Origin: Aldersonia sp. NBC_00410 | Lineage (GTDB): Bacteria > Actinomycetota > Actinomycetes > Mycobacteriales > Mycobacteriaceae | Reading direction: 5' to 3' | Length of the DNA stretch: 32,000 bases | Assembly (NCBI RefSeq): GCF_026342035.1 | Contig: NZ_JAPENM010000011.1 | Coordinates: 96,989-128,988, forward strand | In this document: piece by piece, positions 5,965 through 30,600 of the stretch | How positions within the stretch are numbered: position 1 is the first letter of the stretch | Layout: each line of letters begins with the position of its first letter | The notes under the pieces: generated by a model | What the model saw: the letters and a program-made list of their open reading frames with translations, nothing else | The model's database searches: none | Told to the model about the DNA's origin: nothing | Program-made: the position numbers and the translations under genes

Positions 5965-7542
5965 ATGTCGGCGCTGCCCGCACAGCTCGAGCGTGTCCAC
6001 ATGGTGGGCATCGGTGGCGCCGGGATGTCCGGGATCGCCCGCATTCTGCTGGCGCGCGGCGGCGCGGTGTCGGGGTCGGACGCGAAGGAAAGCCGCGCGG
6101 TGCTCGCCCTGCGTGCCCGTGGCGCCCAGGTACGGGTCGGGCACGACGCGTCGGCGCTGGACCTGTTGCCCGGCGGGCCGACGGCTGTCGTCACCACCCA
6201 CGCCGCGATCCCGAAGACCAATCCCGAACTCGTCGAGGCGCACCGCCGCGGGCTGCCCGTGCTGCTGCGCCCAACGGTGCTTGCGTCGTTGATGCGCGGC
6301 TATCGCACCGTGCTCGTGGCAGGCACGCACGGCAAGACGTCCACCACCTCGATGCTCGTCGTCACGTTGCAGCACTGCGGTTTCGACCCGTCGTTCGCGG
6401 TGGGTGGGGAGCTCAACGAGGCAGGGACCAACGCCCATCACGGCACCGGCGACGTCTTCGTGGCCGAGGCCGACGAGAGCGACGGTTCGCTGCTCGAATA
6501 CGACCCGGGCACCGTGGTGGTGACCAATGTCGAATCCGATCACCTCGACCATTTCGGCACCACCGAGGCCTATGTGCAGGTATTCGACGACTTCCTCGCG
6601 CGGCTCGCACCCGGTGGCGCGCTGGTCGCCTGCCTCGACGATCCCGGTTCGGCGGCGCTGGCCCGCCGCGTCGTGGCGGGCCCGCGCGGGGACATCCGGG
6701 TGGTCGGTTACGGCACGCTGCCCAAAGTCGCCGCCGGCGAGTCGCCCAAAGTCGCCGCCGGCGAGTCGCCCAATGTCGGCGCCGACGAGTCGCCGAGCAC
6801 TGCGTCCGGCGAGGTTCCCGCGGTGTACGAGGGTGTCCCGGTGGGCGTCTGGCTGCACAGTTGGGAGCCGCGCGACGTCGGCGGTGTCGCGCAGTTCCAG
6901 GTCGTCGGCGAGCCGAACCCGCGCACGCTTCGGCTCGCGGTGCCGGGACGGCACATGGCGCTCAATGCGATCGCCGCGATCGCCGCGGCCCGCGATGTCG
7001 GCGCGGACGTGGAGGAGGCGGTCGAGGGGCTCGCCGTATTCGGCGGCGTGCACCGGCGTTTTCAGTTCACCGGCCGTGAGCACGGGGTTCGGGTGTTCGA
7101 CGACTACGCCCACCACCCGACCGAGGTGCGCGCCGTGCTCGGCGCCGCGGTCGAACTCGTCGAGCAGGAGGCACGCGACGGCGCCCGTTCCCGGCGCGGC
7201 AGCGTCGTGGTGGTGTTCCAGCCGCATCTGTACAGCCGCACCGCGACATTCGCGACGGAGTTCGCCGCCGCGCTCGACCTCGCCGACGAGGTCGTCGTGC
7301 TCGACGTCTACGGCGCGCGAGAGGAGCCGCTGCCAGGGGTGAGCGGCGCGTTGATCGCCCAGTCGGTCGGCAAGCCGGTGCACTACCAGCCCGATATGTC
7401 GCGGGTCGGTCGACAGGTGGCCGCGCTGACCCAGCCCGGTGACGTGGTGATCACGATGGGCGCGGGCGACGTGACCATGCTCGGTAGCCAGATCCTCGAC
7501 GCGTTGCGCGCCCGGCCGCGGTACGGAAAACCGAACGGATGA
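5965..7542 (+). CDS. murC: UDP-N-acetylmuramate--L-alanine ligase MurC
   Basis: Motifs [12 protein letters not shown] and [11 protein letters not shown] are present. ATG 5965 is preceded by GGAGGA (5950-5955) and gives an [15 protein letters not shown]-terminus like mycobacterial MurC. The track ORF begins earlier at GTG 5911 (GTGA overlap with murG), so the start is uncertain by 54 nt. Confidence 0.9.
6721..6792 (+). repeat. in-frame 24-bp x3 tandem repeat inside murC ([24 protein letters not shown])
   Basis: 6721-6744 and 6745-6768 are identical (cccaaagtcgccgccggcgagtcg). 6769-6792 is a degenerate third copy. All are codon-aligned with murC. Confidence 0.9.
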
Positions 7543-9546: not shown

Positions 9547-10307
9547 CCGGGCCGCAAGGACAGCCGACCGGTAAACCCGCACGCAGCACGAAGGTTCGCC
9601 GGGTGGTCACCACCCGCGCGGGCGGCGTGTCCGTCGCCCCGTACGACAGCTTCAACCTCGGTGATCACGTCGGCGACGACCCTGTCGCGGTCGCAGCCAA
9701 CCGAGTCCGACTGGCCACCCAGATCGGCCTGACCCCGGACCGGCTGGTCTGGATGGAGCAGATTCACGGCCGCAACGTCGAAGTGGTGGACGGCCCGCGC
9801 GAGCACGCCGTCGAGGCCACCGACGCCCTGGTCACCAGCACACCCGATCTGGCGCTCGTGGTGCTTTCGGCCGACTGTGTTCCCGTCCTGCTCTCCGATG
9901 ACGAGGCCGGTGTGCTCGGCGCGGTGCATGCGGGCCGGGTGGGCGCCCGGATCGGGATCGTCCCAGTGGTTCTCGACGCGATGGTGGCGCTCGGCGCGCG
10001 CCGCGATCGGATCGGCGCTTTCCTCGGTCCCGCCGCCAGCGGGCGGCAATACGAGGTACCCGCGCAGATGCGCGCCGACGTCGAAGCCCATCTGCCCGGC
10101 AGCGCGACCACGACGGCGAAGGGCACCCCCGGTCTCGACCTGCGCGCCGGGTTGCGCCGCCAGTTGCTGGCGGCGGGCGTCTCGGCCGTCGCGATGGATC
10201 CGCGCTGCACGATCGAGGACGCGACATTGTTCAGTCACCGCCGTGCTGCGCCCACTGGCAGACTGGCCAGCGTGATCTGGATGCAGTCCGTGCCCCCGGT
10301 GCCGTGA
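9543..10307 (+). CDS. pgeF: YfiH/PgeF (DUF152) laccase-domain peptidoglycan editing factor family protein
   Basis: 254 aa with [37 protein letters not shown] and LFSHRR motifs. TTGA overlap with the ftsZ stop. This position after ftsZ is conserved in actinobacteria. Confidence 0.88.
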
Positions 10308-10416
10308 CAGACGGTCCGAATTGGCCAGTGCCGTGACCGACGGTCCGAATTGGCCAGTGCCGTGACAGACGGTCCAAACAGGACAGCGCCGTGAGCCGAC
10401 GGTCCGAGCTGGCCGA
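10301..10416 (+). repeat. 29-bp x4 tandem repeat spanning the pgeF stop and the yggS start
   Basis: GCCGTGA starts at 10301, 10330, 10359 and 10388. Copies 1 and 2 differ at 1 nt. Copy 3 diverges in its 3' half. Copy 4 is the 5' end of yggS. Confidence 0.92.
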
Positions 10417-16795: not shown

Positions 16796-16796
16796 C

Positions 16797-16825
16797 GGGC
16801 CTCGTCGAAGACGAGCAGACGGCCC
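16797..16825. terminator. possible bidirectional stem-loop between convergent ileS and the secreted-protein gene
   Basis: The inner stem is CTCGTC-gaa-GACGAG (16801-16815). It is flanked by GGGC (16797-16800) and GCCC (16822-16825). There is no U tract. Confidence 0.3.
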
Positions 16826-17229
16826 TACGGGGTCACGAAAAACGTGCCGACGCTGGGCGTGACGATCACCTCGCCCAGATCCGGTATCCGGACGGATGCC
16901 GTGACGACGACCTGGCCGGAGCCGGTCGTGGTGGCGGCATCGGTCGGCTGTTGCTCGGTGATGGTTCCGGAGCCCCCGGTGCTCAGGTTGACCCAGGTGT
17001 AAGTCCATCCGTAGCCCTGTCGTACCGGGTGGATCCGGCCATGTCCGTGCTCGATCGTCGGTGTGTACGGTGCCGCACCACGGGTAATCGGCAGCCCGAC
17101 AATCACTCCCGGCACCTGCAGCGTGGTCGCGCCGTCGAATGTCACCGGTTCGGCGGCGGCGGGCGCCGTCGAGCCGATCCACATCCCGACTCCGAGCACA
17201 CCGACCACCAGTCCGCCAATTGTTCGCAC
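16825..17229 (-). CDS. small secreted protein of unknown function
   Basis: GAGGAG (17242-17237) precedes tandem GTG codons at 17232 and 17229. Sec-type signal peptide VRTIGGLVVGVLGVGMWIGSTAPAAA/EP. The mature part is about 108 aa, beta-rich and Thr/Gly/Val-rich. The 5' part of the 172-aa track ORF is probably not translated. Confidence 0.7.
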   Translation of the reverse strand: MRTIGGLVVGVLGVGMWIGSTAPAAAEPVTFDGATTLQVPGVIVGLPITRGAAPYTPTIEHGHGRIHPVRQGYGWTYTWVNLSTGGSGTITEQQPTDAATTTGSGQVVVTASVRIPDLGEVIVTPSVGTFFVTP

Positions 17230-17310
17230 CACGCAACTCCTCGCTCTTGCAACAAATTCCGCAGTTACTTCCGATGTGCGCGGTCGTTCGTTACGCAGGC
17301 TGGCGAGGCA

Positions 17311-17337
17311 GGTCGGACTAGTGTGACTGGTCCGACC
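17311..17337 (+). promoter_or_regulatory. candidate TA operator: 8-bp inverted repeat GGTCGGAC-N11-GTCCGACC
   Basis: Perfect arms at 17311-17318 and 17330-17337, 28 nt upstream of the antitoxin ATG. TATCGT (17351-17356, TAnnnT) ends 8 nt before ATG 17365 and there is no SD, which suggests a leaderless transcript. Confidence 0.4.
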
Positions 17338-17364
17338 GGTCAATTACGAGTATCGTTTGCGGAC

Positions 17365-17601
17365 ATGAGGACGACTACCAGCACCGAGGCCAAGGCGCGG
17401 CTTAATGCGCTACTGGCGGAGGTTGCGGAGACCGGGGAACCGATCACCATCACCAGTCACGGGAAGCCCGTGGCCGTCCTGTCTCCCGCTGTGCCGATCC
17501 CACGTCGATTCGGGCAGATGGCTGGCCGGTTGACCATTCCCGCCGATTTCGACACGCCTCTCGATGACGCCGATCTTGCACGCTGGGAGGGTGGCGAGTG
17601 A
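17365..17601 (+). CDS. type II antitoxin, Phd/YefM family
   Basis: 78 aa with N-terminus MRTTTSTEAKARLNALLAEVAETGEPITITSHGKPVAVLS. The stop overlaps the PIN toxin start (GTGA). The track ORF 16951..17601 is an upstream extension antisense to the neighbouring gene. Confidence 0.85.
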   Translation: MRTTTSTEAKARLNALLAEVAETGEPITITSHGKPVAVLSPAVPIPRRFGQMAGRLTIPADFDTPLDDADLARWEGGE

Positions 17602-18005
17602 TTTCGACCGGCGTCCTGCTCGATACAAACGCATTGCTGTGGTGGGTTGTCGATCCCGACCGAATCGGACCGGATGTGCGTGAGCGGTTGGCGGACCCGT
17701 CGACGCAGGTGTTCGTGTCGGCGGCATCGGCATGGGAGGTGGCGATCAAGACCCGCTTGGGCAAGCTTGCCGGTGGTGAGGCGTTGCTATCCGTGTGGGA
17801 CGAGACGCTCGCGAGTATCCGCGCGACGGCGATCGACATGACGGCCGCGGACGCGATCATGGCGGGCGGTCTCCCGTGGCCGCACCGGGACCCCTTCGAC
17901 CGGATGCTGGTGTCGCAAGCTGCTCGGCGCGGTCTGACGTTGGCCAGCAGCGACGAGGTAATTCTCGCCGGCGCCATGTCGCCGACTCTCGACCTACGCC
18001 GATGA
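17598..18005 (+). CDS. vapC: type II toxin, PIN-domain ribonuclease (VapC family)
   Basis: 135 aa with PIN acidic motifs LLDTNALLWW, SAASAWEVAIK and PHRDPFDRMLVSQA. Translationally coupled to the antitoxin gene. Confidence 0.88.
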   Translation: MISTGVLLDTNALLWWVVDPDRIGPDVRERLADPSTQVFVSAASAWEVAIKTRLGKLAGGEALLSVWDETLASIRATAIDMTAADAIMAGGLPWPHRDPFDRMLVSQAARRGLTLASSDEVILAGAMSPTLDLRR

Positions 18006-18142
18006 ACTGCCGACGCGACCGGTGAAGTCCTCGACTATCACGATCCCGATAAAATAAGTCAACTGCGGGCTCGCGCGATTTCCCAGCCCGGGCTGGCTGG
18101 CCGAGGCGCGACTCTTGCCTGCAAGGTGAGGATGGGCCGTTA

Positions 18143-19000
18143 ATGGTGGACTGTCACGAAGCACCATTCCCCATAGCCGCCTATTTCGACATGAATGTGT
18201 GGGTCGAGATGGCGAAGGGCCTGAAAATAGGTAACCCGGACTGGCTGGCTGCTGCCGACGAACTAAAGGCTGCGGTTCGAGAGTCCCGACTAGTGGTTCC
18301 TCTCAGTGCGGCGCACTACATGGAACTCTGGCACCGCCGTGACCAGGCCTCACGCGAGGCTGTGGGCGCTCTGATGCGCGACATCGCGGACTACGTGTCC
18401 CTATCGCCAATTCAGCGAGTGCGCGACTTGGAAGTCGATGCGCTAGTTGATCGCCACCTTGGTGGCCGGCGCCGGATAGAGGCACCGGATCTTCTTGCGA
18501 GGGGAGTCGTTCATGCCTCCGACTCGCCCCACGGCCGGCTTCGGTTTGTGTCGTCGATCGAAACCGCGGACGAGCCGGAGGGGTCGGCGGCCGATGCGCC
18601 GGTCGGGGTCGAGGACCTTCGGGCGCAGCCACCACTCTGGGAGTGGATACACCTTGTAGGCACCCAAGAACTCATAGCGGCAGACGGCCTCGATCGGACG
18701 CCCGAACATCGTCATGGAAGCCGATACGTGGACCAAGAGCTGGATCTACGCCGTCGAATATCGGCGGATCCATCGCTTCGTTCGCGACTTCTGGATTACA
18801 TCATCACCGAAGAGATAACCGACCTGACTGATGCGATCAATAGGGCCTGCCGGGAACGCGAAACAGACCCCCACATTCTGATCCTTGGGCGCGGAGGCAC
18901 GCCTGCTGATGCCATTCGCAAAGTCGTACTTGAGATTCCTAGTGTGGATGTAGTCGTGAGGCTTCGCTGGTGGAAGCACAAGGATCTTGGTCTGCAATGA
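18143..19000 (+). CDS. orphan hypothetical protein in a low-GC segment; 3' end probably disrupted
   Basis: 285-aa ORF. GC is clearly lower than in flanking genes. A 14-bp perfect palindrome CCAGCCCGGGCTGG (18083-18096) lies upstream. I recognise no family motif. Confidence 0.55.
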   Translation: MVDCHEAPFPIAAYFDMNVWVEMAKGLKIGNPDWLAAADELKAAVRESRLVVPLSAAHYMELWHRRDQASREAVGALMRDIADYVSLSPIQRVRDLEVDALVDRHLGGRRRIEAPDLLARGVVHASDSPHGRLRFVSSIETADEPEGSAADAPVGVEDLRAQPPLWEWIHLVGTQELIAADGLDRTPEHRHGSRYVDQELDLRRRISADPSLRSRLLDYIITEEITDLTDAINRACRERETDPHILILGRGGTPADAIRKVVLEIPSVDVVVRLRWWKHKDLGLQ

Positions 19001-19196
19001 ACAGCACGACAAGACCGACCTCATGGCGCTGGGTGTCGCCACCCCGTACTCGGACATTGTCGTGACGGAGCGTCGATGGTCACACCTGCTCCGAGTTTCT
19101 GGGCTGGCAAGCCGATATTCAACGGCTGTTGGCCAAGGGCTCGGGGGCGTCAGGACGGCGCTCGGTCTTTGCGACCGTCCACCTTTTCGTGTCTGA
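18960..19196 (+). pseudogene. out-of-frame continuation of the orphan ORF (apparent frameshift near 18960-19000)
   Basis: The +1 frame is open from 18960 and reads ...NEQHDKTDLMALGVATPYSDIVVTERRWSHLLRVSGLA... with high third-position GC for about 35 codons, overlapping the stop at 18998-19000. Coding signal decays after about 19100. Confidence 0.4.
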
Positions 19197-19302
19197 TGTC
19201 GAAAGGGGGAACTCTGGTGGACCGGCTCGGTCGACCACGCTTGGCCTGGAACGTTTTTGGGAGCTTCGCCGACCGGAGCCTGCGCCAACTATCCGGCGCT
19301 GG

Positions 19303-19983
19303 TCACGCTTCGAAGCGGTAGCCCATCCCCGCCTCGGTGAGCAGATGTTTAGGGTGTGACGGGTCATCCTCCAGCTTCCGCCGCAGCTGCGCGAGGTACA
19401 CCCGCAGGTAGTGGCCCTCGTTGGCATAGGCCTGGCCCCACACCTCCTGCAGCAACTCCCGGCGACCGACGAGCTTGCCGCGGTTGCGCACGAGCATCTC
19501 GAGGATGCCCCACTCGGTCGGGGTCAAGTGCACATCCGTGCCTGCTTTGGTGACCTTCTTCGCGGCAAGATCCACCGTGAACGACTCGGTCGCGACGACC
19601 GGCTCGTCCGTGTCCGCGGCCACCGACCCGCGCCGCACCGCGGCGCGTAACCGCGCGAGGAATTCGTCCATGCCGAACGGTTTGGTGACGTAGTCGTCGG
19701 CGCCCGCGTCGAGCGCCTCCACCTTGTCGGCGGAGTCGGTGCGCGCGGACAGCACGATAACCGGTGCAGCACACCAGCCACGCAGTCCCGCGAGCACCTC
19801 GACGCCGTCCATGTCCGGCAGGCCGAGATCCAGAATGATCACATCCGGGCTCTTTTCCGCGGCCGCCCGCAAAGCGCCCGCGCCGGATGCCGCGGTTGTC
19901 ACGTCGTAACCCCGGACGGACAGGTTGATCCGCAACGCACGCAGGATCTGCGGCTCGTCGTCGATCACCAGCACTCGCGTCAC
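19303..19983 (-). CDS. kdpE: OmpR-family response regulator KdpE
   Basis: 226 aa with a receiver domain (VLVIDDEP...DVIILDLGLPDMDG) and a winged helix (LTPTEWGILEMLV...YLRVYLAQLRRKLE...GMGYRF). GTGA overlap with kdpD. Confidence 0.93.
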   Translation of the reverse strand: MTRVLVIDDEPQILRALRINLSVRGYDVTTAASGAGALRAAAEKSPDVIILDLGLPDMDGVEVLAGLRGWCAAPVIVLSARTDSADKVEALDAGADDYVTKPFGMDEFLARLRAAVRRGSVAADTDEPVVATESFTVDLAAKKVTKAGTDVHLTPTEWGILEMLVRNRGKLVGRRELLQEVWGQAYANEGHYLRVYLAQLRRKLEDDPSHPKHLLTEAGMGYRFEA

Positions 19984-22538
19984 GGTGCGTCCTCGATCCG
20001 GCCGAGCGGATTGCCGGCGGCGAGTTCCACCACGATGGTCAGCCCGCCACCGGGGGTATCGGTGGCTGTCACGGTGCCGCCCATCGCCTCGACGAACCCG
20101 CGCACCACCGAAAGCCCGAGCCCGACGCCGGTGCTGTTGTCGCGGTCGCCGAGGCGCTGGAACGCGTCGAACATCTGCTCCTGCTCATCGCGCGGTATGC
20201 CCGGACCCTCGTCCGCGACGGTGATGAGCACCCGGTTCCCGGTCTGCGCCGCCGCCACCCGGACCTTGCCCGCCGGTGCGTACTGCAGCGCGTTCTCCAC
20301 GAGATTCGCCAAGACCCGCTCGAGCAGGCCGGCGTCGGCGAGCACGCAGGCGTCGCCGACGTCCACTTCGACGCGGTCGAGGGACGGTCGCAGCCGGCTC
20401 GCGCCGGTGCCGATGCCGAGGAGCACCCGGTGGATGGCTTCGTCCACGTAAACGCGCCGGAGTTCCGGCCGGACCACCCCCGCCGCGAGCCGCGTCGTAT
20501 CGAGCAGGTTACCGACGAGCGCGGTGAGCTGGTCGGTCGATTCCTCCACGGTGGCAAGGAGTTCGGCGGTGTCGTCGGGGGAGAATTCGACGTCGTGACT
20601 GCGCAGGCTCGAGACGGCCGCCTTCACCGCGGCCAGTGGCGTGCGCAGGTCGTGGCTCACCGCCGACAGCAGCGAACGGCGTAGCCGGTCGGCCTCGGCC
20701 AGCGCCGCCGCCGAGGCCGCCTCGTCGGCGAGCTGCCGCTGCCGGATCAGCCCGACGGCCTGATTGGCGACGGCGTTCAGGACCCGGCGGTCGCGGGCAG
20801 GCAACTCGGCGCCGCCCAGCAGCAGGAAATAGTCGCCCTCACCGACCTCGATCGCGGTGTCCGCGTCCGCCGGCGTGCTCGGCGGGTCGGTGCCGACGGA
20901 GGCTATCGCCCCCTCGGCTCGGCCGACGATCGACACCGCACGCTGCGAATACGTCTCGCGCACCCGCTCCAACAGCCCGGGCAGGTCCGCGCCGCGCAGC
21001 ACCGAACCGGCGAACAATGCCAGTAGCTCGGCCTCCTGCGAGGCGCGGCGCGCCTGCGCGGCGCGTTTCGCCGCGCTGTCGACGAGCGCGGCCACCGCCA
21101 CCGCCACCGCCAGCAGCACCAGCACCGTGACGAAGCTGTCCGGCTCGGCGATCGTCAGGCTGTGGCGCGGGTCGACGAAGAAGAAGTTGAGCATGGCGCC
21201 GGAGATCAGCGCCGACAACACCGCAGGTCCGATGCCGCCGAGCAGCGCAACGAGCAGCACCACCACGAAGAACACCGCGCTCTCGCCGCCGAGATCCAGG
21301 ATCCCGTCGAGGAACAGCGCGGTCACGGCGCACGCGACCAAGGGCACGACGATCGCCGCGAGCCACGCGAACACCCGGCGCTCCTTGGGTGCGAGGGAGG
21401 CGAACCGGAATCCGGTGCGTGCCTCTTCGTGCGTGACCATGTGCACGTCGATCTTGCCCGACTGTTGCAGGGTGGCCGCGCCGATGCCCTCGTCGAAAAT
21501 CCGGGCCCAGCGCGATCGGCGCGAAGTACCGAGCACCAACTGGGTGGCATTCACATCCCGGGCGAACTCCAGCAGGCTGGTGGGCACATCATCGCCGACG
21601 ATGCTGTGCACGGTCGCGCCGAGGCTGGACGCGATCCCGCGCACCTTGCCCATTTTCGGCGCAGAGACCCCGGCGAGTCCGTCGCCGCGCACGACGTGCA
21701 CCACCATCAGTTCCGCGCTCGATTTCGACGCGATCCGGCTCGCGCGCCGCAGCAGCGTCTCGGATTCCGCGCCGCCCGTCACGGCGACCACCACCCGTTC
21801 CCGGGCCTCCCAGGTGTCGGTGATGTCCTTCTCCGCGCGATACTTTGCCAGAGCGGCGTCGACCTGATCGGCCAGCCAGAGCAAGGCCAGCTCCCGCAAC
21901 GCGGTCAGGTTGCCCGGCCGGAAGTAGTTGCTCAGCGCGGCGTCGACCTTCTCGGGGCCATAGACATTGCCGTGCGCGAGCCGGCGCCGCAGCGCTTCCG
22001 GGGTGATGTCCACCAGTTCCACCTGCGCCGCGCCGCGCACCACCTCGTCGGGCACCGTCTCCTGCTGCACGACCCCCGTGATCTGTTGCACCACATCGTT
22101 GAGACTCTCGAGGTGCTGCACGTTGACAGTGCTGATCACCGTAATGCCCGCGGCGAGCAGCTCTTCCACGTCCTGCCACCGCTTGGGGTTCGCGCTGCCC
22201 GGGGTGTTGGTGTGCGCGAGCTCGTCGACCAGCACCACCGTAGGTCTGCGCCGCAGCACCGACGGCACATCCAGCTCCGGCATCCGGGTACCGCGATAAG
22301 GCACGAAACGCGGTGGGATCATCTCGATTCCGTCGAGCAGCTCGAGGGTCTTCGTGCGCCCGTGCGCTTCCACGACTGCTGCGACCAGATCGGTACCGCG
22401 CTCGAGTCGGCGATGTGCCTCGCCGAGCATCGCGTAGGTCTTGCCGACCCCCGGTGCGGCACCGAGGTAGATCCGCAGCTCGCCCCGTTTGGGTTTGTCC
22501 GACAAGCTCACACCTAGATCATCCACCGAGCGGAGCAT
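19980..22538 (-). CDS. kdpD: sensor histidine kinase KdpD
   Basis: Contains the KdpD N-terminal domain (GELRIYLGAAPGVGKTYAML), a Usp-like region, a TM cluster, HisKA (SAVSHDLRTPL) and HATPase_c. ATG 22538 is chosen (20-nt overlap with kdpC); GTG 22511 is an alternative. The 977-aa track ORF extension runs through kdpC. Confidence 0.9.
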   Translation of the reverse strand: MLRSVDDLGVSLSDKPKRGELRIYLGAAPGVGKTYAMLGEAHRRLERGTDLVAAVVEAHGRTKTLELLDGIEMIPPRFVPYRGTRMPELDVPSVLRRRPTVVLVDELAHTNTPGSANPKRWQDVEELLAAGITVISTVNVQHLESLNDVVQQITGVVQQETVPDEVVRGAAQVELVDITPEALRRRLAHGNVYGPEKVDAALSNYFRPGNLTALRELALLWLADQVDAALAKYRAEKDITDTWEARERVVVAVTGGAESETLLRRASRIASKSSAELMVVHVVRGDGLAGVSAPKMGKVRGIASSLGATVHSIVGDDVPTSLLEFARDVNATQLVLGTSRRSRWARIFDEGIGAATLQQSGKIDVHMVTHEEARTGFRFASLAPKERRVFAWLAAIVVPLVACAVTALFLDGILDLGGESAVFFVVVLLVALLGGIGPAVLSALISGAMLNFFFVDPRHSLTIAEPDSFVTVLVLLAVAVAVAALVDSAAKRAAQARRASQEAELLALFAGSVLRGADLPGLLERVRETYSQRAVSIVGRAEGAIASVGTDPPSTPADADTAIEVGEGDYFLLLGGAELPARDRRVLNAVANQAVGLIRQRQLADEAASAAALAEADRLRRSLLSAVSHDLRTPLAAVKAAVSSLRSHDVEFSPDDTAELLATVEESTDQLTALVGNLLDTTRLAAGVVRPELRRVYVDEAIHRVLLGIGTGASRLRPSLDRVEVDVGDACVLADAGLLERVLANLVENALQYAPAGKVRVAAAQTGNRVLITVADEGPGIPRDEQEQMFDAFQRLGDRDNSTGVGLGLSVVRGFVEAMGGTVTATDTPGGGLTIVVELAAGNPLGRIEDAP

Positions 22539-23193
22539 GCGGAGCGACGTTGTGACCGCATTCGGGCGCGGCGTGCCCGAGCGCGAGATTGAGTTCGGGC
22601 ACATCGACGCGCTCTGCCCCGAGGAACCCCAACGTGCGGGTCGAGGTGTGCTCTTCGACCAACTGCCGCACCCGGTCCTCCGCCATGCCGTTGACCCGCG
22701 CCACCCGCGGCACCTGGATCGCGGCGTACGCCGGACTGATCTGCGGATCGAGCCCGGAGCCGGATCCGGTGACCGCGTCCGCGGGAACGGCGGACGGATC
22801 GACGCCGTCGCGTTCGGCGATCGCCATGCGGCGCTGCGCGACGAAGTCGGCGAGCGTCTCACTGCTCGGCCCGAGATTCGACGCCGCCGACGCGGCCGGG
22901 TCGCCGGTGGCAAACGGGTCCTGGTCCGCCACCGAGCCGAGCACCCGCGCGTGGAAGAACGGATCGGGTTCCCCGGCCGGGACCTGCGGGTCGATTCCGA
23001 TCAATCGGCTACCGACTACGCAACCGTTGGCGTCTGCGAGCGCCGACCCCTCGGCGGCGCTCGCGTCGATCCGGCTCACGGTCCACACTGCCGCGGGATA
23101 GCCGATGCCGAGCACGAGCGTGAGCGCGAGCATTACCAGTAATCCGGCCCACGTTTGCCGGAGCAGTCCGATGACGAATCGCATTTCGATCAC
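22519..23193 (-). CDS. kdpC: K+-transporting ATPase subunit KdpC
   Basis: 224 aa with an N-terminal TM anchor ([19 protein letters not shown]) and the [11 protein letters not shown] motif. GTG 23193 overlaps the kdpB stop (GTGA); ATG 23184 is an alternative. Confidence 0.9.
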
Positions 23194-25313
23194 CCGATCC
23201 CAGGAATGAGACGGACGACGAGGTCGATCGCCCAGATGCCGATGAACGGCGTGATGACCCCACCGATGCCGTAGATCAACAGGTTTCGCCCCAGCAGCGC
23301 CGAGGCCGACGACGGCCGGTAGCGAACGCCGCGCAGCGACAACGGAATCAGCGCGACGATCACGAGCGCATTGAAGATGACCGCGGACAGGATCGCCGAC
23401 TCCGGTGTCGCGAGACGCATGATGTTGAGCGTGTCCAGTTGCGGATAGATGGCACTGAACAGCGCCGGCAGGATCGCGAAGTATTTCGCGAGGTCGTTGG
23501 CCAGCGAAAACGTGGTCAACGCGCCGCGGGTGATCAGCAGTTGCTTGCCGATCTGCACGATCTCGATGAGCTTGGTCGGGTCGGAGTCAAGGTCGACCAT
23601 GTTCCCGGCTTCTTTGGCGGCCGAGGTGCCCGTGTTCATCGCCACGCCGACGTCCGACTGGGCAAGGGCGGGAGCGTCATTGGTGCCGTCACCGGTCATG
23701 GCGACGAGGCGCCCACCCTCCTGCTCGCGCCGGATCAGCGCGAGCTTGTCCTCGGGCGTCGCCTCGGCCAAGAAATCGTCCACCCCGGCCTGCGCGGCGA
23801 TCACCTTGGCGGTGAGCGGGTTGTCGCCGGTAATCATCACGGTGCGAATACCCATAGCCCGCAACTGCGCGAACCGCTCGGCAATGCCCGGCTTCACCAC
23901 ATCCGATAGCTCGATCACGCCGAGGATGCGGACCGCATCGCCGGCGGACCTCGCGACCACAAGGGGAGTGCCACCGCGGCCGGCGATGTCGTCCACCGTG
24001 TCGGGAATCGATGCGGCAACTTCCCCGGCGCGCTCACGCACCCAGGCCAGCACGGAATCGGACGCACCCTTGCGGATTTCGGTGCCGTCGAGGTTCAGCC
24101 CGCTCATCCGTGTCGTCGCGGTGAACGCGACGAACCCGCCGACGCTCTCGGCCTCGCTCGGATACGGGTCGAGGTGGGACTGCTCCGCGCAGAGCGCCAC
24201 GATGCTGCGCCCCTCCGGGGTCGAGTCGGCCAGGCTGGACAGTCGTGCGGCAACGGACAATTCGTCGGCGCTCACCCCGGGCGCGGGATGCAGGGCCGTG
24301 GCCATCCGGTTCCCGTAGGTGATGGTGCCGGTCTTGTCCATCAGCAGCGTGTCGATGTCGCCCGCCGCCTCGACCGCACGTCCGGACATCGCGAGCACGT
24401 TGCGCTGCACCAGTCGGTCCATCCCGGCGATGCCGATCGCGGAGAGCAGCGCTCCGATGGTGGTGGGGATCAGGCACACCAGCAATGCGATCAGCTTCAC
24501 CGGATCGGGTGCGCTACCCGCGTATTGGCCCATCGGCCCGATCGCGACGACCGCGAACACGAAGATGATCGTCAGCGCGGCGAGCAGGATGTTCAGTGCG
24601 ATCTCGTTCGGGGTCTTCTGCCGCGCGGCGCCTTCCACCAGCGCGATCATCCGGTCCACGAAGGACTCTCCGGGTGCCGCGGTGATCTGCACGACGATCC
24701 GGTCGGAGAGCACGGTGGTGCCGCCGGTGACCGCGCACCGGTCACCGCCCGATTCCCGGATCACCGGCGCCGATTCACCGGTGATCGCGGACTCGTCGAC
24801 GGTGGCGATGCCCTCGATTACGTCACCGTCGCCGGGAATCACCTCGCCCGCCGCCACCGCGACTCGGTCACCCGGGCGCAGTGCGGTTCCGGAAATCTCC
24901 TCGGTCCGGCCGTCCGTGCCGATTCGCCGGGCGACGGTGTCCCGCTTGACCGCGCGCAGACTGGCGGCCTGCGCCTTGCCGCGGCCCTCCGCGACCGACT
25001 CGGCGAGGTTGGCGAACAGCACGGTGAACCACAGCCACACCGCGATCAACCAGGTGAACAGAGTCGGTTCTGCCACTGCGTAGGCGGTGGTTATCACCGA
25101 CCCGACCCAGACCACGAACATCACCGGATTGCGGGCCATATGACGGGGATTCAGCTTGCGGGCCGCGCCGGGCAGCGACGTCCACAACTGATGGGGATCG
25201 AACACACCCGCGGCGACCGGCGACACCCCATGGTGGCCCGCATCGTCACGAGCCCGTGCCGCCGAGGTCGGCAGCCCACCGACCCGGTCGGCCCGTTCGA
25301 CGGTCGAACTCAT
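23190..25313 (-). CDS. kdpB: K+-transporting P-type ATPase subunit KdpB
   Basis: 707 aa from ATG 25313 (ATGA overlap with the kdpA stop). P-type motifs [19 protein letters not shown] and [18 protein letters not shown] are present. The track ORF N-terminal extension overlaps kdpA. Confidence 0.95.
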
Positions 25314-26995
25314 TGCAGTGCCTCCGCTATCGGTCCCAGCGCAAGCGCGGGGAAGAAGGTGAGCGCCGCGACCAGTGCGACGGTGCCGGTGAGCAGGCCG
25401 ACGAACATTCGGCCGTTCGTGGGCAGGGTGCCCGGTCCGGCCGGGTGCGGGGTCTGGGTCGCGAGCGAACCGGCCAGTGCCAGTACGAGAATGATCGGCA
25501 GGAACCGGCCGAGCAGCATGGCGACGCCGAGCGAGGACTGGAACCAGTCGCTCGTCACAGTAAGCCCGCCGAACGCACTGCCGTTGTTGTTCGAGGCGGA
25601 TGCGTAGGCGTAGAGCACTTCGCTGAACCCGTGAATCGACCCGGGCGCTCCGGGTGGGCCACTGTTGCCCTGGAAACCGGTGGTGGAGGACAGGATCACG
25701 GTGATCGCCGTACCCGTCAGCACCAGCGCGGGCATCACCAACACGGATAGCGCGGCGAGCGTGATTTCCCGCTGGCGCAGCTTCTTTCCGAGGTATTCGG
25801 GCGTGCGCCCGACCAGCAGTCCCCCGACGAACACCGCGATCAGTGCGAGCACGAGAATGCCGTACAACCCGGTACCGACTCCGCCCGGCGCGATCTCGCC
25901 GAGCAGGATGTTGAGCAGCAATGCGCCGCCACCCCACGCCGAGTAGCTGTCGTGGAAGGAATTCACCGCACCGGTCGAAGTGCCGGTGGTGCTCACCGCG
26001 AACAGCACCGAGCCGGGGATCCCGAAGCGAACGTCCTTGCCCTCCATCATGGCGCCGGCCGCCTGCGCCGCGATCCCCCGGGTGTTCGACTCGGCCCAGA
26101 GGGTGAACGCGAGCAGGCCGGCCCAGATGATGCCCATCACGGTCAGCAATGTGAGGCCCTGGCGGCGGTTGCCGACCATCGTGCCGAACGTGCGGGTAAG
26201 GCAGACCGGGATCAGCAGGATCGCAATTACCTGCACGATGTTGCTGATCGGGGTTGGGTTCTCGAACGGATGCGCCGAGTTGGTGTTGAAGATGCCACCG
26301 CCGTTGGTGCCGAGTTCCTTGATCGCCTCCTGAGAAGCGGCCGGTGCCAACGCATTTGTCACCGGCGTACCGTCCAATCCGGTCGCGGTGAACCCGCTGT
26401 GGAACGACTGCACGACGCCCTGGGTCAGCAGGACCAGGGCGATCAGAAACGCCAGTGGCAGCAGCACTCGCAGCGTGCCACGAGTGATGTCGACCCAGAA
26501 ATTGCCGATCTCACCGCCCGCCCGGACGCGGACGAGGCCGCGGATCAGCGCGATAGCCACGGACAGTCCGACCGCCGCCGAAACGAAGTTCTGCACCGCG
26601 AGCCCTACCGGTTGGGTGAAGTTGCTCATCGTCGTCTCGGGAACGTAGGACTGCCAGTTGGTGTTCGTGACAAACGAGACCGCGGTGTTGAACGCGACCG
26701 CCGGACTTACTCCGGCGAGGTCACCGTGCAAAGGGAGCACGCCTTGGACGCGTTGCAGCACATAGAGCAACAGCACTCCGGCGAGCGAGAAGCCGAGCAG
26801 GCTCGATGCGTAGCCGAACCAGGTCTGTTCACGCCCGGAGTCGATCCGGCACACGCGATAGAGCAGCGACTCGGCCCGCAGGTCGCGGTCCGAGGTGTAG
26901 ACCTTGGCGATGTAGTCGCCGACCGGGACGTAGGCGATCGCGAGCACGCCGATGACGAGCGCGCTCTGCAGTCCCGCAGCAAGCGCGGGATTCAT
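25310..26995 (-). CDS. kdpA: K+-transporting ATPase subunit KdpA
   Basis: 561 aa polytopic channel-like subunit. N-terminus is [33 protein letters not shown]. Sits in the expected operon position. Confidence 0.95.
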
Positions 26996-26998
26996 GAC

Positions 26999-27097
26999 TC
27001 AGAACCTCTCCGGATCCAGCAGGGCCACCAGGAGATAGAGCACGAGCGCGACCGAGATCGCCAGCAGCAGTGCGCTGATCACACCGGCCGCAGTCAT
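26999..27097 (-). CDS. kdpF: K+-transporting ATPase subunit KdpF (not in the ORF track)
   Basis: 32 codons encoding MTAAGVISALLLAISVALVLYLLVALLDPERF, a single TM helix ending in the KdpF-like LLxPE+F motif. The stop lies 3 nt before the kdpA ATG. Confidence 0.8.
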   Translation of the reverse strand: MTAAGVISALLLAISVALVLYLLVALLDPERF

Positions 27098-27186
27098 TTC
27101 GCGGCCTTGGTGTTCAGTGCGCGCAACAGCAGCGCCAACCCGAAGAACATCGCGAGGGTGAGCAGCACGAATGCAAGGTCGGCCAT
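27094..27186 (-). CDS. 30-codon hydrophobic ORF translationally coupled (ATGA) to kdpF
   Basis: Encodes MADLAFVLLTLAMFFGLALLLRALNTKAAK. 26 of 30 codons end in G/C. A purine-rich GAGAAGGGAAG precedes the ATG. The TGA overlaps the kdpF ATG. It was missed by the 60-aa track cutoff. Confidence 0.5.
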   Translation of the reverse strand: MADLAFVLLTLAMFFGLALLLRALNTKAAK

Positions 27187-27331
27187 CGACTTCCCTTCTC
27201 GACCGACAGGGCGGTTCCCCGTCGCACGCAGCATCGCGCGCGGAGAAGGGCGTGCAGCGGTCGTTGACGGACCCCTGACACGGTGACCTGGAGTCTTGAC
27301 GACTTCTTGATGCCGGTACTACTCGAGCGGG

Positions 27332-28225
27332 TTAGGGGGCCAGCGTGTCGAGCACCTCGTGCGCCCAGCGCATCGACGCAAGAGGGTCCGCATCGGGGTT
27401 CCCGACACTCGGATCGAAGTTCAGGTCGAGGAAGGTCTCCGTGATGCCGGCGCGCGCGAGCTGGTCGAGATCGGCGCGGATCTCGTCGAACGAGCCTGTG
27501 AGTGGTGTCGAGCGCTCGGCATTGCGCAGCACGCCCCGGCAGACGAAGCGCAGCGCGTTCTCGTCTCGCCCGGCCTCGCGCGCCGCCGATTTCACGATCT
27601 CGACCTGTTCGCCGATCTCGGTGAGGTTCGTCCGACTGCTGCTCATCCAGCCGTCCGCGAGCCGGCCCGCGCGCTGCAGCGCCGCGGGTGCGCTGCCGCC
27701 CAGGATGATCGGCGGGTTCGGCTGCTGCACCGGCTTGGGCCGGATGCTCGACCGTGGAATCCGGTAGAACTCGCCGTCGAATTCGACCGGATCGGCGCCC
27801 CACACCGCGTGCAGCGCCGCGACGTACTCGGCGCCCCGCGCGCCGCGTCGTTCGAAGTCGGCACCGGCGGCGACGAACTCGTCGATCGACCAGCCGAGGC
27901 CGAGCCCGGCGTCGAGCCGCCCGTTCGACAGCACATCGAGGGTGGCGAGCTGCTTGCCGAGGATCGCCGGTGCCTGGAACGGCACGTTCACGATGCCCGT
28001 CCCGAGCCGGATCCGCTCGGTTACCGCGGCGGCGAAGCCAAGCGCGGCAATCGGATCGAGCACGCTCGCATACGGTGGACCGAGCGGGGCCGATTCGGCG
28101 ACGAGGATGCGCTGGAAGCTCCACAGCGTCGAGTAGTCGAGCTCCTCGGCGCGGTGCGCAATCTCCACGATGTTGGCCGGCGTCGCCCACGACCCCGACA
28201 CGGGTAGTCCGAATCCGAGTTTCAT
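27332..28225 (-). CDS. LLM-class (luciferase-like) F420-dependent oxidoreductase
   Basis: 297 aa from ATG 28225 (MKLGFGLPVSGSWATP...). It has typical LLM/TIM-barrel features (LDYSTLWSF..., GNGRLDAGLGLGW, ILGGSAPAALQRAGRLADGW). The 605-aa track ORF extension is antisense to the next gene. Confidence 0.85.
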   Translation of the reverse strand: MKLGFGLPVSGSWATPANIVEIAHRAEELDYSTLWSFQRILVAESAPLGPPYASVLDPIAALGFAAAVTERIRLGTGIVNVPFQAPAILGKQLATLDVLSNGRLDAGLGLGWSIDEFVAAGADFERRGARGAEYVAALHAVWGADPVEFDGEFYRIPRSSIRPKPVQQPNPPIILGGSAPAALQRAGRLADGWMSSSRTNLTEIGEQVEIVKSAAREAGRDENALRFVCRGVLRNAERSTPLTGSFDEIRADLDQLARAGITETFLDLNFDPSVGNPDADPLASMRWAHEVLDTLAP

Positions 28226-28345
28226 GCTCCCCACTCTGCCCGCCGACCCGGCACGAACCCAACGGGAACATTCCCGCCGCGCGCCGTATCCAATGTTCAG
28301 CCGCAGCCGATCGGCTCGCGGACCCGACACCGAGGAGTGAAAACA

Positions 28346-28807
28346 ATGACGAACCCCTTCCTTCCGCAGATCCCCAACCTCGACGACCTGCTCGGCGGCG
28401 CGCCGGCCAACGTCTCGATCGACATCCTCGACGGCGTTGTCCAGGGGCAGGCCGGGTTCGACGCCGACGGCGGCGTGGAAGCCTCGGTCGGGGTACCGGG
28501 CGGGCCGGAGCTGTCGTTCGGTGCCGACGGCTACGCCTCGGCCGATGCCGGTATCGCCGCCGAAGGCAGTTACACCCACATCGCGGCCGACGACGGGGGC
28601 CCTGTCGGCGATTCGCTGTCCATCGACACCCTCCATGGCGGGGTGGCCGGCTACGGCGGCGTCGATCTCGGCGGCGGGATCGAGGCCTCGCTCGACATTC
28701 CGGGTGGCCCGGAGCTCGGTCTCGACGGGCAGGGTGAGTTCGGTGCGCACGGTGGCTTCGAGGCCCAGGGCGGCTACACCCACATCGAGACGCACGACGT
28801 CATGTGA
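28346..28807 (+). CDS. acidic Gly/Asp-rich protein with an internal duplication of about 58 aa; unknown family
   Basis: GAGGAG (28332-28337) lies 8 nt before ATG 28346. 153 aa. The repeats are D29-D86 and D97-D154 in track numbering. They share GG(V/I)EAS..(V/I)PGGPEL and G.YTHI..(D/H)D. No signal peptide, TM helix or Cys. Confidence 0.65.
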   Translation: MTNPFLPQIPNLDDLLGGAPANVSIDILDGVVQGQAGFDADGGVEASVGVPGGPELSFGADGYASADAGIAAEGSYTHIAADDGGPVGDSLSIDTLHGGVAGYGGVDLGGGIEASLDIPGGPELGLDGQGEFGAHGGFEAQGGYTHIETHDVM

Positions 28808-28819
28808 GGTGCGGGTTCG

Positions 28820-28909
28820 ATGCGACGCGTCTTCGACGTGTCGGTATCCATGCGACACGTCTTCGACGTGTCGGTATCCATGCGACACGTCTTCGACGTG
28901 TCGGTGAGT
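28820..28909 (+). repeat. 30-bp x3 tandem repeat, each unit holding a 9-bp inverted repeat CGACACGTC-TTC-GACGTGTCG
   Basis: Units lie at 28820-28849, 28850-28879 and 28880-28909. Copy 1 has one substitution (A to G at 28827). Copy 3 diverges only in its last 4 nt. Confidence 0.95.
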
Positions 28910-28920
28910 CGGCGTAGCTT
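28899..28920 (+). promoter_or_regulatory. candidate RecA-independent DNA-damage promoter (RecA-NDp / PafBC-type)
   Basis: TGTCGGTG (28899-28906), then 8 nt, then TAGCTT (28915-28920) fits the mycobacterial consensus tTGTCRgtg-N8-TAnnnT exactly. The -10 ends 7 nt before GTG 28928. Confidence 0.5.
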
Positions 28921-28927
28921 TCTTCCC

Positions 28928-29260
28928 GTGAGCACCCGACGGGAAACGATCGACCTCGTGCTCGAGCAGCTGCGTCCGCTCGACGTGCGTAGCCACCCGA
29001 TGTTCGGTGAGTACGCGCTGTACTGCGACGAAAAGGTGGTCGGCTTCGTCTGTGACGACACCCTGCTGATGAAGATCACCACCGTGTCGCCGGAGTTCGC
29101 GGCCGAGCTCCCATTCGGCCGTCCGTACCCGAACGCCAAGGACTACCACGCGGTCCCGGCCGAGCGGCTCGCCGACATCGACTGGCTGCAGGCCTTCGTG
29201 CAGGCCACCGCCGACGTGCTGCCCATCCCGAAACCGAAAAAGTCCCGCGCAAAGACGTGA
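28928..29260 (+). CDS. TfoX/Sxy N-terminal-domain protein
   Basis: GTG 28928 gives a 110-aa protein ([51 protein letters not shown]...) with the TfoX_N pattern MFG.y.ly.d...f..v.dd.L.lK. In-frame ATGs at 28820, 28850 and 28880 in the repeat are alternative starts. The stop overlaps the dinB start (GTGA). Confidence 0.75.
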
Positions 29261-30600
29261 CTGATCCGACGCGCAGTGCCCGGTGGGTGCTGCACCTCGA
29301 TATGGACGCGTTCTTCGCCTCGGTCGAGCAACTCACTCGGCCGACATTGCGTGGCCGTCCGGTCCTGGTCGGGGGGACCGGCGGCCGCGGCGTCGTCGCC
29401 GGCGCGAGCTACGAGGCGCGGGTGTTCGGCGCGCGTTCGGCGATGCCGATGCATCAGGCCCGCCGGCTCGTCGGCGCGACCGCAGTGGTGTTGCCACCGC
29501 GGGGCAGCCTGTACTCGGCGATGAGCAAGACCGTGTTCGACACCGTTCGCGAGCGGCTGCAGGTACTGGAGCAGCTGTCCACCGACGAGGCGTTCGGCGA
29601 GCCCGCCGAGCTCATCGGGGCCGACGCGGCGACCGTCTGGGGGTACTGCGAACAGTTGCGCGCCCATGTCCGCGAACGCACCGGACTTGTCGCCTCGATC
29701 GGCGCGGGCAGTGGCAAACAGATCGCCAAGATCGCCTCGGGACTGGCCAAGCCCGACGGGGTCCGGGTGGTGTCGCCGGCCGAACAGCACGACCTGTTCG
29801 CCGCGCTGCCGGTGCGCAAGCTGTGGGGGATCGGGCCGGTCGGCGAAGCGAAGCTGCGCCGGCTGGGCGTCGAGACGATCGGCGCGTTCGCCGCGATGCC
29901 CGAATCCGAGGTCGCATCGCTGCTCGGCGGCACCGTCGGCCCCGCGCTGCATCGGCTGGCGCGTGGTATCGATGACCGGGCCGTGGAGGAGCGCGCCGAG
30001 GCCAAGCAGATCTCGGCGGAAACGACGTTCGCCGCCGACCTCGTCACGCTCGGGGAGCTGCGTGCGGCGATCGAGTCGCTGGCCGCGTCGGCGCACCGCC
30101 GCCTCGGCAAGGACGGTCGCGCCGCCCGCACCGTCGTGCTCAAGCTGAAGAAGACCGATATGAGCGTGCTCACCCGCTCGGTGACGCTGCCGGCCGCGAC
30201 GACCGAGCTCGCGACCCTCGCCGCCGCCGCGCAACGATCGGCGATCGACCCGGTCGAGCTGGGGCCGGTCCGGCTCGTCGGCGTCGGCTACGGCGGACTG
30301 TCCACCGTGCGGCAGACCTCGCTGTTTCCCGAGCTGGACCTGCCCTTCGAACCGGACGCCGCGACCGACCACGATCCTGACGACGAGGCCACCGAACTCG
30401 AGACTGCCGCCGAACAACTGTGGCGTCCGGGCCTCGACGTATGCCATATCGAGTTCGGGCACGGCTGGGTGCAGGGCGCCGGCCACGGGGTGGTCACCGT
30501 GCGGTTCGAGACCCGCTCCACGGGCCCCGGACCGGCCCGAACGTTCCCGGCGGACGCGTCCGGCCTGGTCGGAGCCGATCCGCTGGACAGTCTGCGATGA
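29257..30600 (+). CDS. dinB: DNA polymerase IV (Y-family, DinB) with C-terminal extension
   Basis: 447 aa with N-terminal [16 protein letters not shown] and [22 protein letters not shown]. Clamp-binding-like QTSLF lies at 30313-30327. An additional Tudor-like C-terminal segment lies at 30421-30597. Confidence 0.93.

Follow-up and report, generated by a model that had tools for sequence, protein, structure and literature searches.

Promoters that depend on the DNA-damage regulator PafBC have been described in mycobacteria, where chromatin immunoprecipitation sequencing yielded the consensus tGTCgg(N10)tA(N3)T (PMC8635444). The 5' part of this consensus, the -26 element, is read by the helix-turn-helix domain of PafB within the complex of RNA polymerase (RNAP) and SigA, a mode of activation termed "sigma adaptation" (PMC8635444). 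In electrophoretic mobility shift assays, PafBC did not bind double-stranded DNA of its own promoter when RNAP holoenzyme was missing, with or without a single-stranded DNA ligand, and the only RNAP that it joins is RNAP already sitting on a PafBC-specific promoter (PMC11804915). Here we analyze a 32-kb stretch of DNA from Aldersonia sp. NBC_00410 (the window; all coordinates are positions within it), in which three 30-bp repeat units precede a tfoX_N gene and a dinB1-type polymerase gene. We consider it probable that the region comprises a conserved PafBC-type tfoX_N-dinB1 promoter whose upstream half has been triplicated in this strain only, with only the last copy being complete. The locus shares with the mycobacterial PafBC-dependent (RecA-NDp/P1) promoters, e.g. 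recA P1, the same bipartite motif (tGTCgg, N10, tA(N3)T) lacking a -35 element, a DNA-damage-tolerance gene downstream, and retention of the motif at orthologous loci. Unlike those promoters, it is predicted to be leaderless, and its upstream half is triplicated and embedded in a palindrome. Furthermore, tfoX_N and dinB1 differ from the known PafBC genes in not having been reported as PafBC targets.

The array also invites comparison with other described elements. The MIRU/VNTR minisatellites (mycobacterial interspersed repetitive units/variable-number tandem repeats) of Mycobacterium, with MIRU units of 40–100 bp, likewise consist of a few near-identical, short head-to-tail units between co-directional genes, with units that are divisible by three in length and share the reading frame of the gene downstream; the Aldersonia unit is shorter (30 bp) and belongs to no dispersed family within the window and 113 related loci. 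The REP/BIME arrays (repetitive extragenic palindromes/bacterial interspersed mosaic elements) of enterobacteria stabilize mRNA 3' ends and occur in hundreds of dispersed copies per genome. They resemble the present array in being tandem imperfect palindromes just past a stop codon that are able to fold into stable RNA hairpins lacking a U-tract, whereas the Aldersonia array shows no dispersal within the window, has arms derived from a promoter element, and is found in a different phylum. An intrinsic terminator, i.e. a G+C-rich hairpin directly followed by a U-tract, overlapping the next promoter is a further parallel, as strong hairpins follow the upstream stop codon and lie over the tfoX promoter in Rhodococcus (-42 kcal/mol); the Aldersonia hairpin, in contrast, is shorter (9 bp), triplicated, and lacks an adjacent U-tract in every copy. 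The locus is thus best filed as a new addition, the tfoX_N-dinB1 operon, to the known PafBC promoter class, carrying a strain-specific triplication of the minisatellite type.

The tfoX_N-dinB1 promoter motif and its conservation

The sequence TGTCGGTG-N8-TAGCTT at 28899–28920 is the sole match of its kind in the 32 kb. For the published form of the motif, TGTCGG-N10-TANNNT, 0.04 occurrences would be expected by chance in the window, and four out of 100 shuffled sequences contained one. The window reads TGTCGG-TGAGTCGGCG-TAGCTT, i.e. the upstream element is followed by a ten-base spacer and then a SigA-type -10 hexamer. TGTCGG (28899–28904) occupies positions -29 to -24 relative to GTG 28928, in agreement with the location of about -23 to -28 for such upstream elements, and 28000–29600 contained no sigma-70-type -35/-10 pair, as anticipated for promoters lacking a canonical -35. 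Seven nucleotides (28921–28927, tcttccc) separate TAGCTT from GTG 28928, and no Shine-Dalgarno sequence was found in tagctttcttccc. The coordinates therefore agree with the original prediction that the third repeat copy completes the consensus and that the -10 ends 7 nt before this start codon. No LexA-type box (GAAC-N4-GT[TA]C) was present in the window, so that dual SOS control is not indicated.

The comparison with related loci included 80 TfoX_N loci from species-representative genomes and three from assemblies (83 in total, 984 kb). In 35 of the 83, an exact TGTCGG-N10-TA-N3-T lay 28–30 nt ahead of the TfoX start codon, beginning at -28 in 20 loci, at -29 in 12 (the position also seen in the window), and at -30 in three. 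Elsewhere in the 984 kb only eight further matches were found on both strands, and about 0.0002 would be expected per locus. Five more loci had the motif with one mismatch in the hexamer, at a control rate of 0.04%. The motif-positive loci came from Rhodococcus and Antrihabitans (essentially all loci), Aldersonia kunmingensis, many Nocardia, and three metagenomic relatives, as well as some Demequina or other Actinomycetes. An alignment of eight orthologous promoters showed TGTCGG, GCGTAG..T and the start codon to be invariant, with nothing conserved upstream of the -26 element. The suggestion that the last copy completes a PafBC/RecA-NDp-type promoter thus gains support from the same motif at the same distance in relatives. 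A TAnnnT hexamer 5–8 nt before the start codon was even more widespread (56 of the 83 loci vs 1.3% at control positions), which points to the leaderless geometry as a family trait. The N-termini of the homologs (V/M-S/G-T-x-x-E-T) begin at the codon matching GTG 28928, in accordance with the start that had originally been proposed.

In each of the 41 Mycobacteriales loci, every Nocardiaceae locus included, the gene immediately after tfoX is dinB1 (70–87% identity). Three loci from Demequina and other Actinomycetes (L061, L070, L076) have a PafBC-type motif at about -28 from the TfoX start although no dinB follows, suggesting TfoX_N itself, and not only DinB1, as a conserved damage-regulated gene. 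A metagenome scan with the TfoX protein returned only distant relatives (at most 55% identity), and looking up the exact sequences of the DinB of the window and of the 146-aa TfoX turned up no recorded contig. The search of a literature library found no paper linking TfoX with PafBC. Taken together, we assign the promoter to this sequence class with high confidence; its PafBC dependence, its induction by damage and its transcription start are inferred from the identity and conservation of the motif.

Table 1 Features of the tfoX_N-dinB1 promoter region and adjoining genes in the Aldersonia window.
Feature	Position	Strand	Remarks
Gly-rich open reading frame (ORF), 156 aa, with two internal ~60-aa repeats	28337..28807	+	No Pfam family; G+C content at third codon positions (GC3) 0.86
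Possible decayed "copy 0"	28790..28819	+	Shares the register of the array; covers the final codons and the stop of the Gly-rich ORF
Repeat unit 1	28820..28849	+	One A->G in the left palindrome arm; -26-like box TGTCGGTA, without -10
Repeat unit 2	28850..28879	+	Perfect palindrome 28853–28873; box TGTCGGTA, without -10; RNA hairpin -14.3 kcal/mol
Repeat unit 3	28880..28909	+	Perfect palindrome 28883–28903; 3' end GAGT vs ATCC, runs into the ancestral promoter
PafBC-type -26 element TGTCGGTG	28899..28906	+	Overlaps the right arm of palindrome 3; TGTCGG invariant in 8 aligned orthologous promoters
-10 hexamer TAGCTT	28915..28920	+	GCGTAG..T invariant in the 8-promoter alignment
tfoX_N gene, 110 aa	28928..29260	+	Pfam TfoX_N, E=2e-12; homolog N-termini align to GTG 28928; predicted transcription start and leaderless start
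dinB1-type Y-family DNA polymerase gene, 447 aa	29257..30600	+	Pfam IMS, IMS_C, IMS_HHH

The start codon GTG of dinB1 overlaps the stop codon of tfoX (GTGA). The polymerase carries QTSLF at residues 353–357, corresponding to the beta-clamp motif that is a hallmark of DinB1 in mycobacteria, where it reads QESLF (PMC9346131). The window also carries ftsZ, pgeF, yggS and ileS. Approximately 12 kb (16796–28336) containing kdp genes, a luciferase-like monooxygenase gene and the Gly-rich ORF lie between ileS and tfoX; in Rhodococcus, ileS adjoins tfoX-dinB1, from which it is separated by about 40 nt. The genes of Rhodococcus spelaei are arranged as ileS-tfoX-dinB-Mtb12-like-...-lspA-rluD, equal to the dinX/Rv1537 neighborhood. 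The tfoX-dinB1 operon retained its own promoter after the rearrangement that separated it from ileS. The internal repeats of the Gly-rich ORF follow the pattern ...PGGPEL...G.YTHI..., and the ORF shares its reading frame with both the array and tfoX. A shorter, possibly frameshifted partial homolog lies upstream of tfoX in A. kunmingensis (L002). The ORF is absent from two relatives (L111 and L112), in which the monooxygenase gene, in divergent orientation, is directly upstream.

The repeat array, its origin and its hairpins

Tandem Repeats Finder placed the array at 28820–28905, with a period of 30, 2.9 copies, 98% matches, a score of 165, and ATGCGACACGTCTTCGACGTGTCGGTATCC as the unit. The three units are arranged head to tail, and the array starts 12 nt past the stop codon of the Gly-rich ORF (TGA 28805–28807). 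The units at 28820, 28850 and 28880 are seen in the sequence, as first described. Each unit contains a palindrome with 9-bp arms, CGACACGTC-TTC-GACGTGTCG. As previously stated, it is exact in the second and third copies, while the first (28823–28843) carries a single A->G mismatch resulting in a G:T pair. Counting both strands of the window, the palindrome has five matches against 0.02 expected. The unit junctions (28835–28861 and 28865–28891) are themselves inverted repeats (GTGTCG-gtatccatg-CGACAC), which would allow the array more than one register of folding; taken over the entire region, its minimum-free-energy structure only marginally surpassed that of shuffled sequences (z=-2.1). The lack of a correctly spaced -10 in copies 1 and 2 was also confirmed, as both read ACACGT at that position. 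The original claim that the boxes lie on the same face of the DNA holds only roughly: 30 bp correspond to 2.86 helical turns, so that successive boxes are rotated by ~51 degrees and copies 1 and 3 differ by ~103 degrees.

Neither the palindrome (up to 3 mismatches) nor the unit (up to 6 mismatches) was found in the 113 related loci (621 kb), A. kunmingensis included, and none of the fetched loci from relatives has more than one -26-like box. Within the window, no further copy of the unit was found when allowing 3 mismatches. At the orthologous A. kunmingensis locus, the homolog of the Gly-rich ORF is followed by taccgcgaacc-TGTCGG, and in a metagenomic relative with 84% identity merely 31 nt separate the upstream gene from tfoX. 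The triplication thus appears to be recent and lineage-specific, given that the repeat and palindrome are absent from all compared relatives, and the single substitution in 86 nt argues for a young array. A metagenomic contig with 95% identity begins 48 nt before the GTG, exactly where unit 3 begins, as if the assembly had broken within a repeat. In a scan of viral contigs, the 21-bp palindrome had a single match, which was judged to be chance or an end artefact: the contig is low in GC and 2.7 kb long, and the match sits at its very tip in unrelated surroundings. Directly ahead of unit 1, 28790–28819 shares 15 of 30 positions with the unit, compared with 7.9 ± 2.5 for other 30-mers on the forward strand of the window, 0.5% of which reach at least 15; this segment is possibly a decayed older copy, a resemblance that we regard as suggestive only.

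Since the -10 hexamer lies outside the repeat unit, only the 3'-most copy can form a complete promoter and changes in copy number leave that promoter intact. The right arm of the palindrome is the ancestral -26 element itself, which indicates a local origin of the unit. A second intergenic array in the window (10299–10414; 29 bp x4, ~85% identity, unit GTGCCGTGACAGACGGTCCGAATTGGCCA) is unrelated in sequence to the one at tfoX and lies between pgeF-like (Cu-oxidase_4) and yggS-like ORFs downstream of ftsZ. Its last and most diverged copy holds the GTG start of yggS, so that the 5' edge of a gene has been copied upstream, as at tfoX; with this second array of ~30-bp units, the genome evidently produces such duplications. 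A 24-bp x3.1 tandem repeat with 94% identity (GCCCAAAGTCGCCGCCGGCGAGTC) was also seen at 6720–6794, probably within a coding region as its unit length is a multiple of three.

As RNA, each unit can form a 9-bp hairpin of approximately -14 kcal/mol. The hairpins are not directly followed by a U-tract as in intrinsic terminators, but by GUAUCC in copies 1 and 2 or by GUGAGUCGGCG in copy 3, and only a weak alternative stem of 7 pairs together with AGCTTTCTTC was flagged as terminator-like. A search against Rfam returned no family for the whole window at gathering thresholds or for 28600–29100 at E<=5, giving only chance matches to unrelated hairpins. Several Rhodococcus lineages have different and stronger inverted repeats right after the ileS stop codon, overlapping the tfoX promoter (-42 kcal/mol, z -4 to -6.7). 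In the R. erythropolis group (L010, L015, L016, L021, L024; locus positions ~2950–2995), an inverted near-copy of the entire -26-to--10 region makes up the left arm, and the hairpin reaches -42.7 kcal/mol (z=-6.7). The R. tukisamuensis group has arms of 10–13 bp, GCCGGTGCCCC/GGGGCACCGGC, around TTGTC, and long inverted repeats over the tfoX promoter were likewise seen after the ileS stop codon in L019, L031, L033, L025 and L004 (~2958–2988). Structure and position, rather than sequence, are thus conserved between lineages, which suggests a role of the hairpins on the upstream transcript, plausibly as a terminator, a stabilizer of its 3' end, or an insulator. Overexpression of dinB1 is toxic (PMC9346131), and such a role would therefore make sense.

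A model for the locus and competing readings

In the model that we favor, the promoter of the two-gene tfoX_N-dinB1 operon, conserved across Nocardiaceae, would belong to the PafBC-dependent "RecA-NDp" class, with TGTCGG as the -26 element, the ten-base spacer and TAGCTT as the sigma-A -10, and without a -35. Transcription would start at or next to GTG 28928, for which reason we predict a leaderless mRNA. As in mycobacteria, by analogy, damage to DNA would generate single-stranded DNA and activate PafBC, which would then dock on promoter-bound RNAP-SigA and contact the -26 element, thereby inducing both the TfoX_N protein and the translesion polymerase. The triplicated 30-bp segment would be a hairpin palindrome whose right arm holds the 5' part of the -26 element, most likely multiplied through slippage during replication or through unequal exchange; the triplication is most probably a by-product of slippage, whether neutral or of mild use. 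Both upstream boxes are probably inert, as they lack a -10 and PafBC does not bind promoter DNA in the absence of RNAP. The three 9-bp hairpins, located in the 3' untranslated region of the Gly-rich ORF, may keep read-through out of the toxic or mutagenic dinB1.

Several points weigh against this model. pafBC is not encoded in the 32-kb window, and the mycobacterial analogy is indirect for this operon in particular, as dinB1 of Mycobacterium tuberculosis has been reported in the SigH regulon and not as a PafBC target (PMC9346131). Efficient intrinsic termination by the hairpins is doubtful given the missing U-tracts. Furthermore, the frame of the array opened by ATG is the most coding-like of the three (GC3 0.80 vs 0.62 and 0.34), and with a GAGG 10 nt before the ATG, a longer TfoX isoform may be made from read-through transcripts.

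This last point leads to the reading, also raised in the original prediction, that the repeat is coding, in which a 146-aa TfoX would be translated from ATG 28820, 28850 or 28880 on read-through or upstream transcripts, using GAGG (28806–28809) as the ribosome binding site and carrying a 10-residue peptide three times. As stated there, the GAGG does lie 10 nt upstream of ATG 28820 and the repeat does share the tfoX reading frame, the ORF from 28820 being open and in frame; the peptide was correctly given as MRHVFDVSVS for copies 2 and 3, whereas copy 1 encodes MRRVFDVSVS. The length of the unit is divisible by three, and the GC3 of 0.80 is near the 0.86–0.88 of real genes. NCBI annotates precisely such a product: WP_266114823.1, a protein of 146 aa from Aldersonia sp. 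NBC_00410, has the same sequence as the ORF at 28820–29260 of the window, with its start inside the repeat. The extension was found in none of 602 homologs, however, whose N-termini align to GTG 28928; most are ~100–126 aa, apart from a few longer or truncated calls, and the start of the closest matches GTG 28928. A search for the repeat peptide among 5.8 billion proteins found none, in an index that holds cluster representatives only; WP_266114823.1 is a non-representative cluster member. The only other long call, a 140-aa JGI prediction (P0003) on an A. kunmingensis-like contig, is also over-extended and has an unrelated N-terminal extension. In addition, the conserved promoter would fall inside the coding sequence and yield an mRNA without the repeat, and GC3 drops to ~0.5 in the 18 nt from the array to the GTG. 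We thus find a coding repeat unlikely; judging from these alignments, the annotated 146-aa TfoX is probably an over-extended gene call with its true start at GTG 28928, and gene callers appear to be misled by leaderless GTG starts within the TfoX_N family.

The remaining readings assign a function or a different origin to the multiplied palindromes. The three identical -26-like boxes, regularly spaced at 30 bp, could be taken as a multi-site PafBC module, acting by cooperative recruitment or as a decoy or sink, in which copy number tunes the strength or threshold of induction. Such joint action of the boxes, as originally envisaged, is disfavored by the shift assays, in which PafBC did not bind promoter DNA when RNAP holoenzyme was left out (PMC11804915), and by the ACACGT found in place of a -10 in copies 1 and 2; with the ~51-degree offset per unit and no relative having more than one box, we judge the idea to be quite improbable. 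The perfect 9-3-9 inverted repeat has the typical size of an operator (21 bp) and overlaps the TGTCG of the -26 element, and in several Rhodococcus lineages this promoter is likewise overlapped by inverted repeats, which are unrelated; a dimeric repressor occluding the -26 element could in principle subject dinB1 to a further level of control. The palindrome sequence is kept in no relative, though, and the inverted repeats of other lineages differ in sequence, in better agreement with a structural role as RNA hairpins; as the window contains no LexA-type box and the array has no adjacent regulator gene, its neighbors being the luciferase-like monooxygenase gene and the Gly-rich ORF, we give the operator very little credence. 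A dispersed palindromic element of the REP/BIME or MIRU type that landed beside the promoter is a similarly far-fetched origin: palindromic units in a tandem intergenic array do resemble BIMEs and MIRUs, and a different 29-bp x4 array exists in the window, but that array (10299–10414) is unrelated in sequence and no other copy of the unit was found in the 32 kb (up to 3 mismatches) or in the 621 kb of related loci.

Returning to the conserved promoter with a triplicated upstream half, two more speculative extensions may be considered. The array might, although we think it improbable, be a copy-number-variable control module in which the number of hairpins tunes read-through or basal transcription into dinB1, or the engagement of RNAP-PafBC, thus forming a mutagenesis dial similar to a contingency locus. 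On a broader scale, the inverted repeats that recur over the -26 elements of PafBC type in Nocardiaceae might constitute an unrecognized structural part of this promoter class.

Implications for the PafBC regulon and TfoX_N proteins

The public record of the strain contains a probable misannotation of a start codon, through which a repeat is translated as protein. As the -10 lies outside the unit and the duplication is harmless to the promoter, the triplication provides a clean natural example of one half of a bipartite promoter being multiplied without disturbance. If the promoter is confirmed, the conserved tfoX_N-dinB1 operon would join the PafBC regulon outside Mycobacterium, and DinB1 would be damage-inducible in Nocardiaceae, whereas dinB1 of M. 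tuberculosis has been linked to SigH. The uncharacterized single-domain TfoX_N proteins of actinobacteria would then also be tied to the DNA-damage response. As an enlargement of the PafBC regulon the locus is open to testing, and it gives a clue to what actinobacterial TfoX_N proteins may do.

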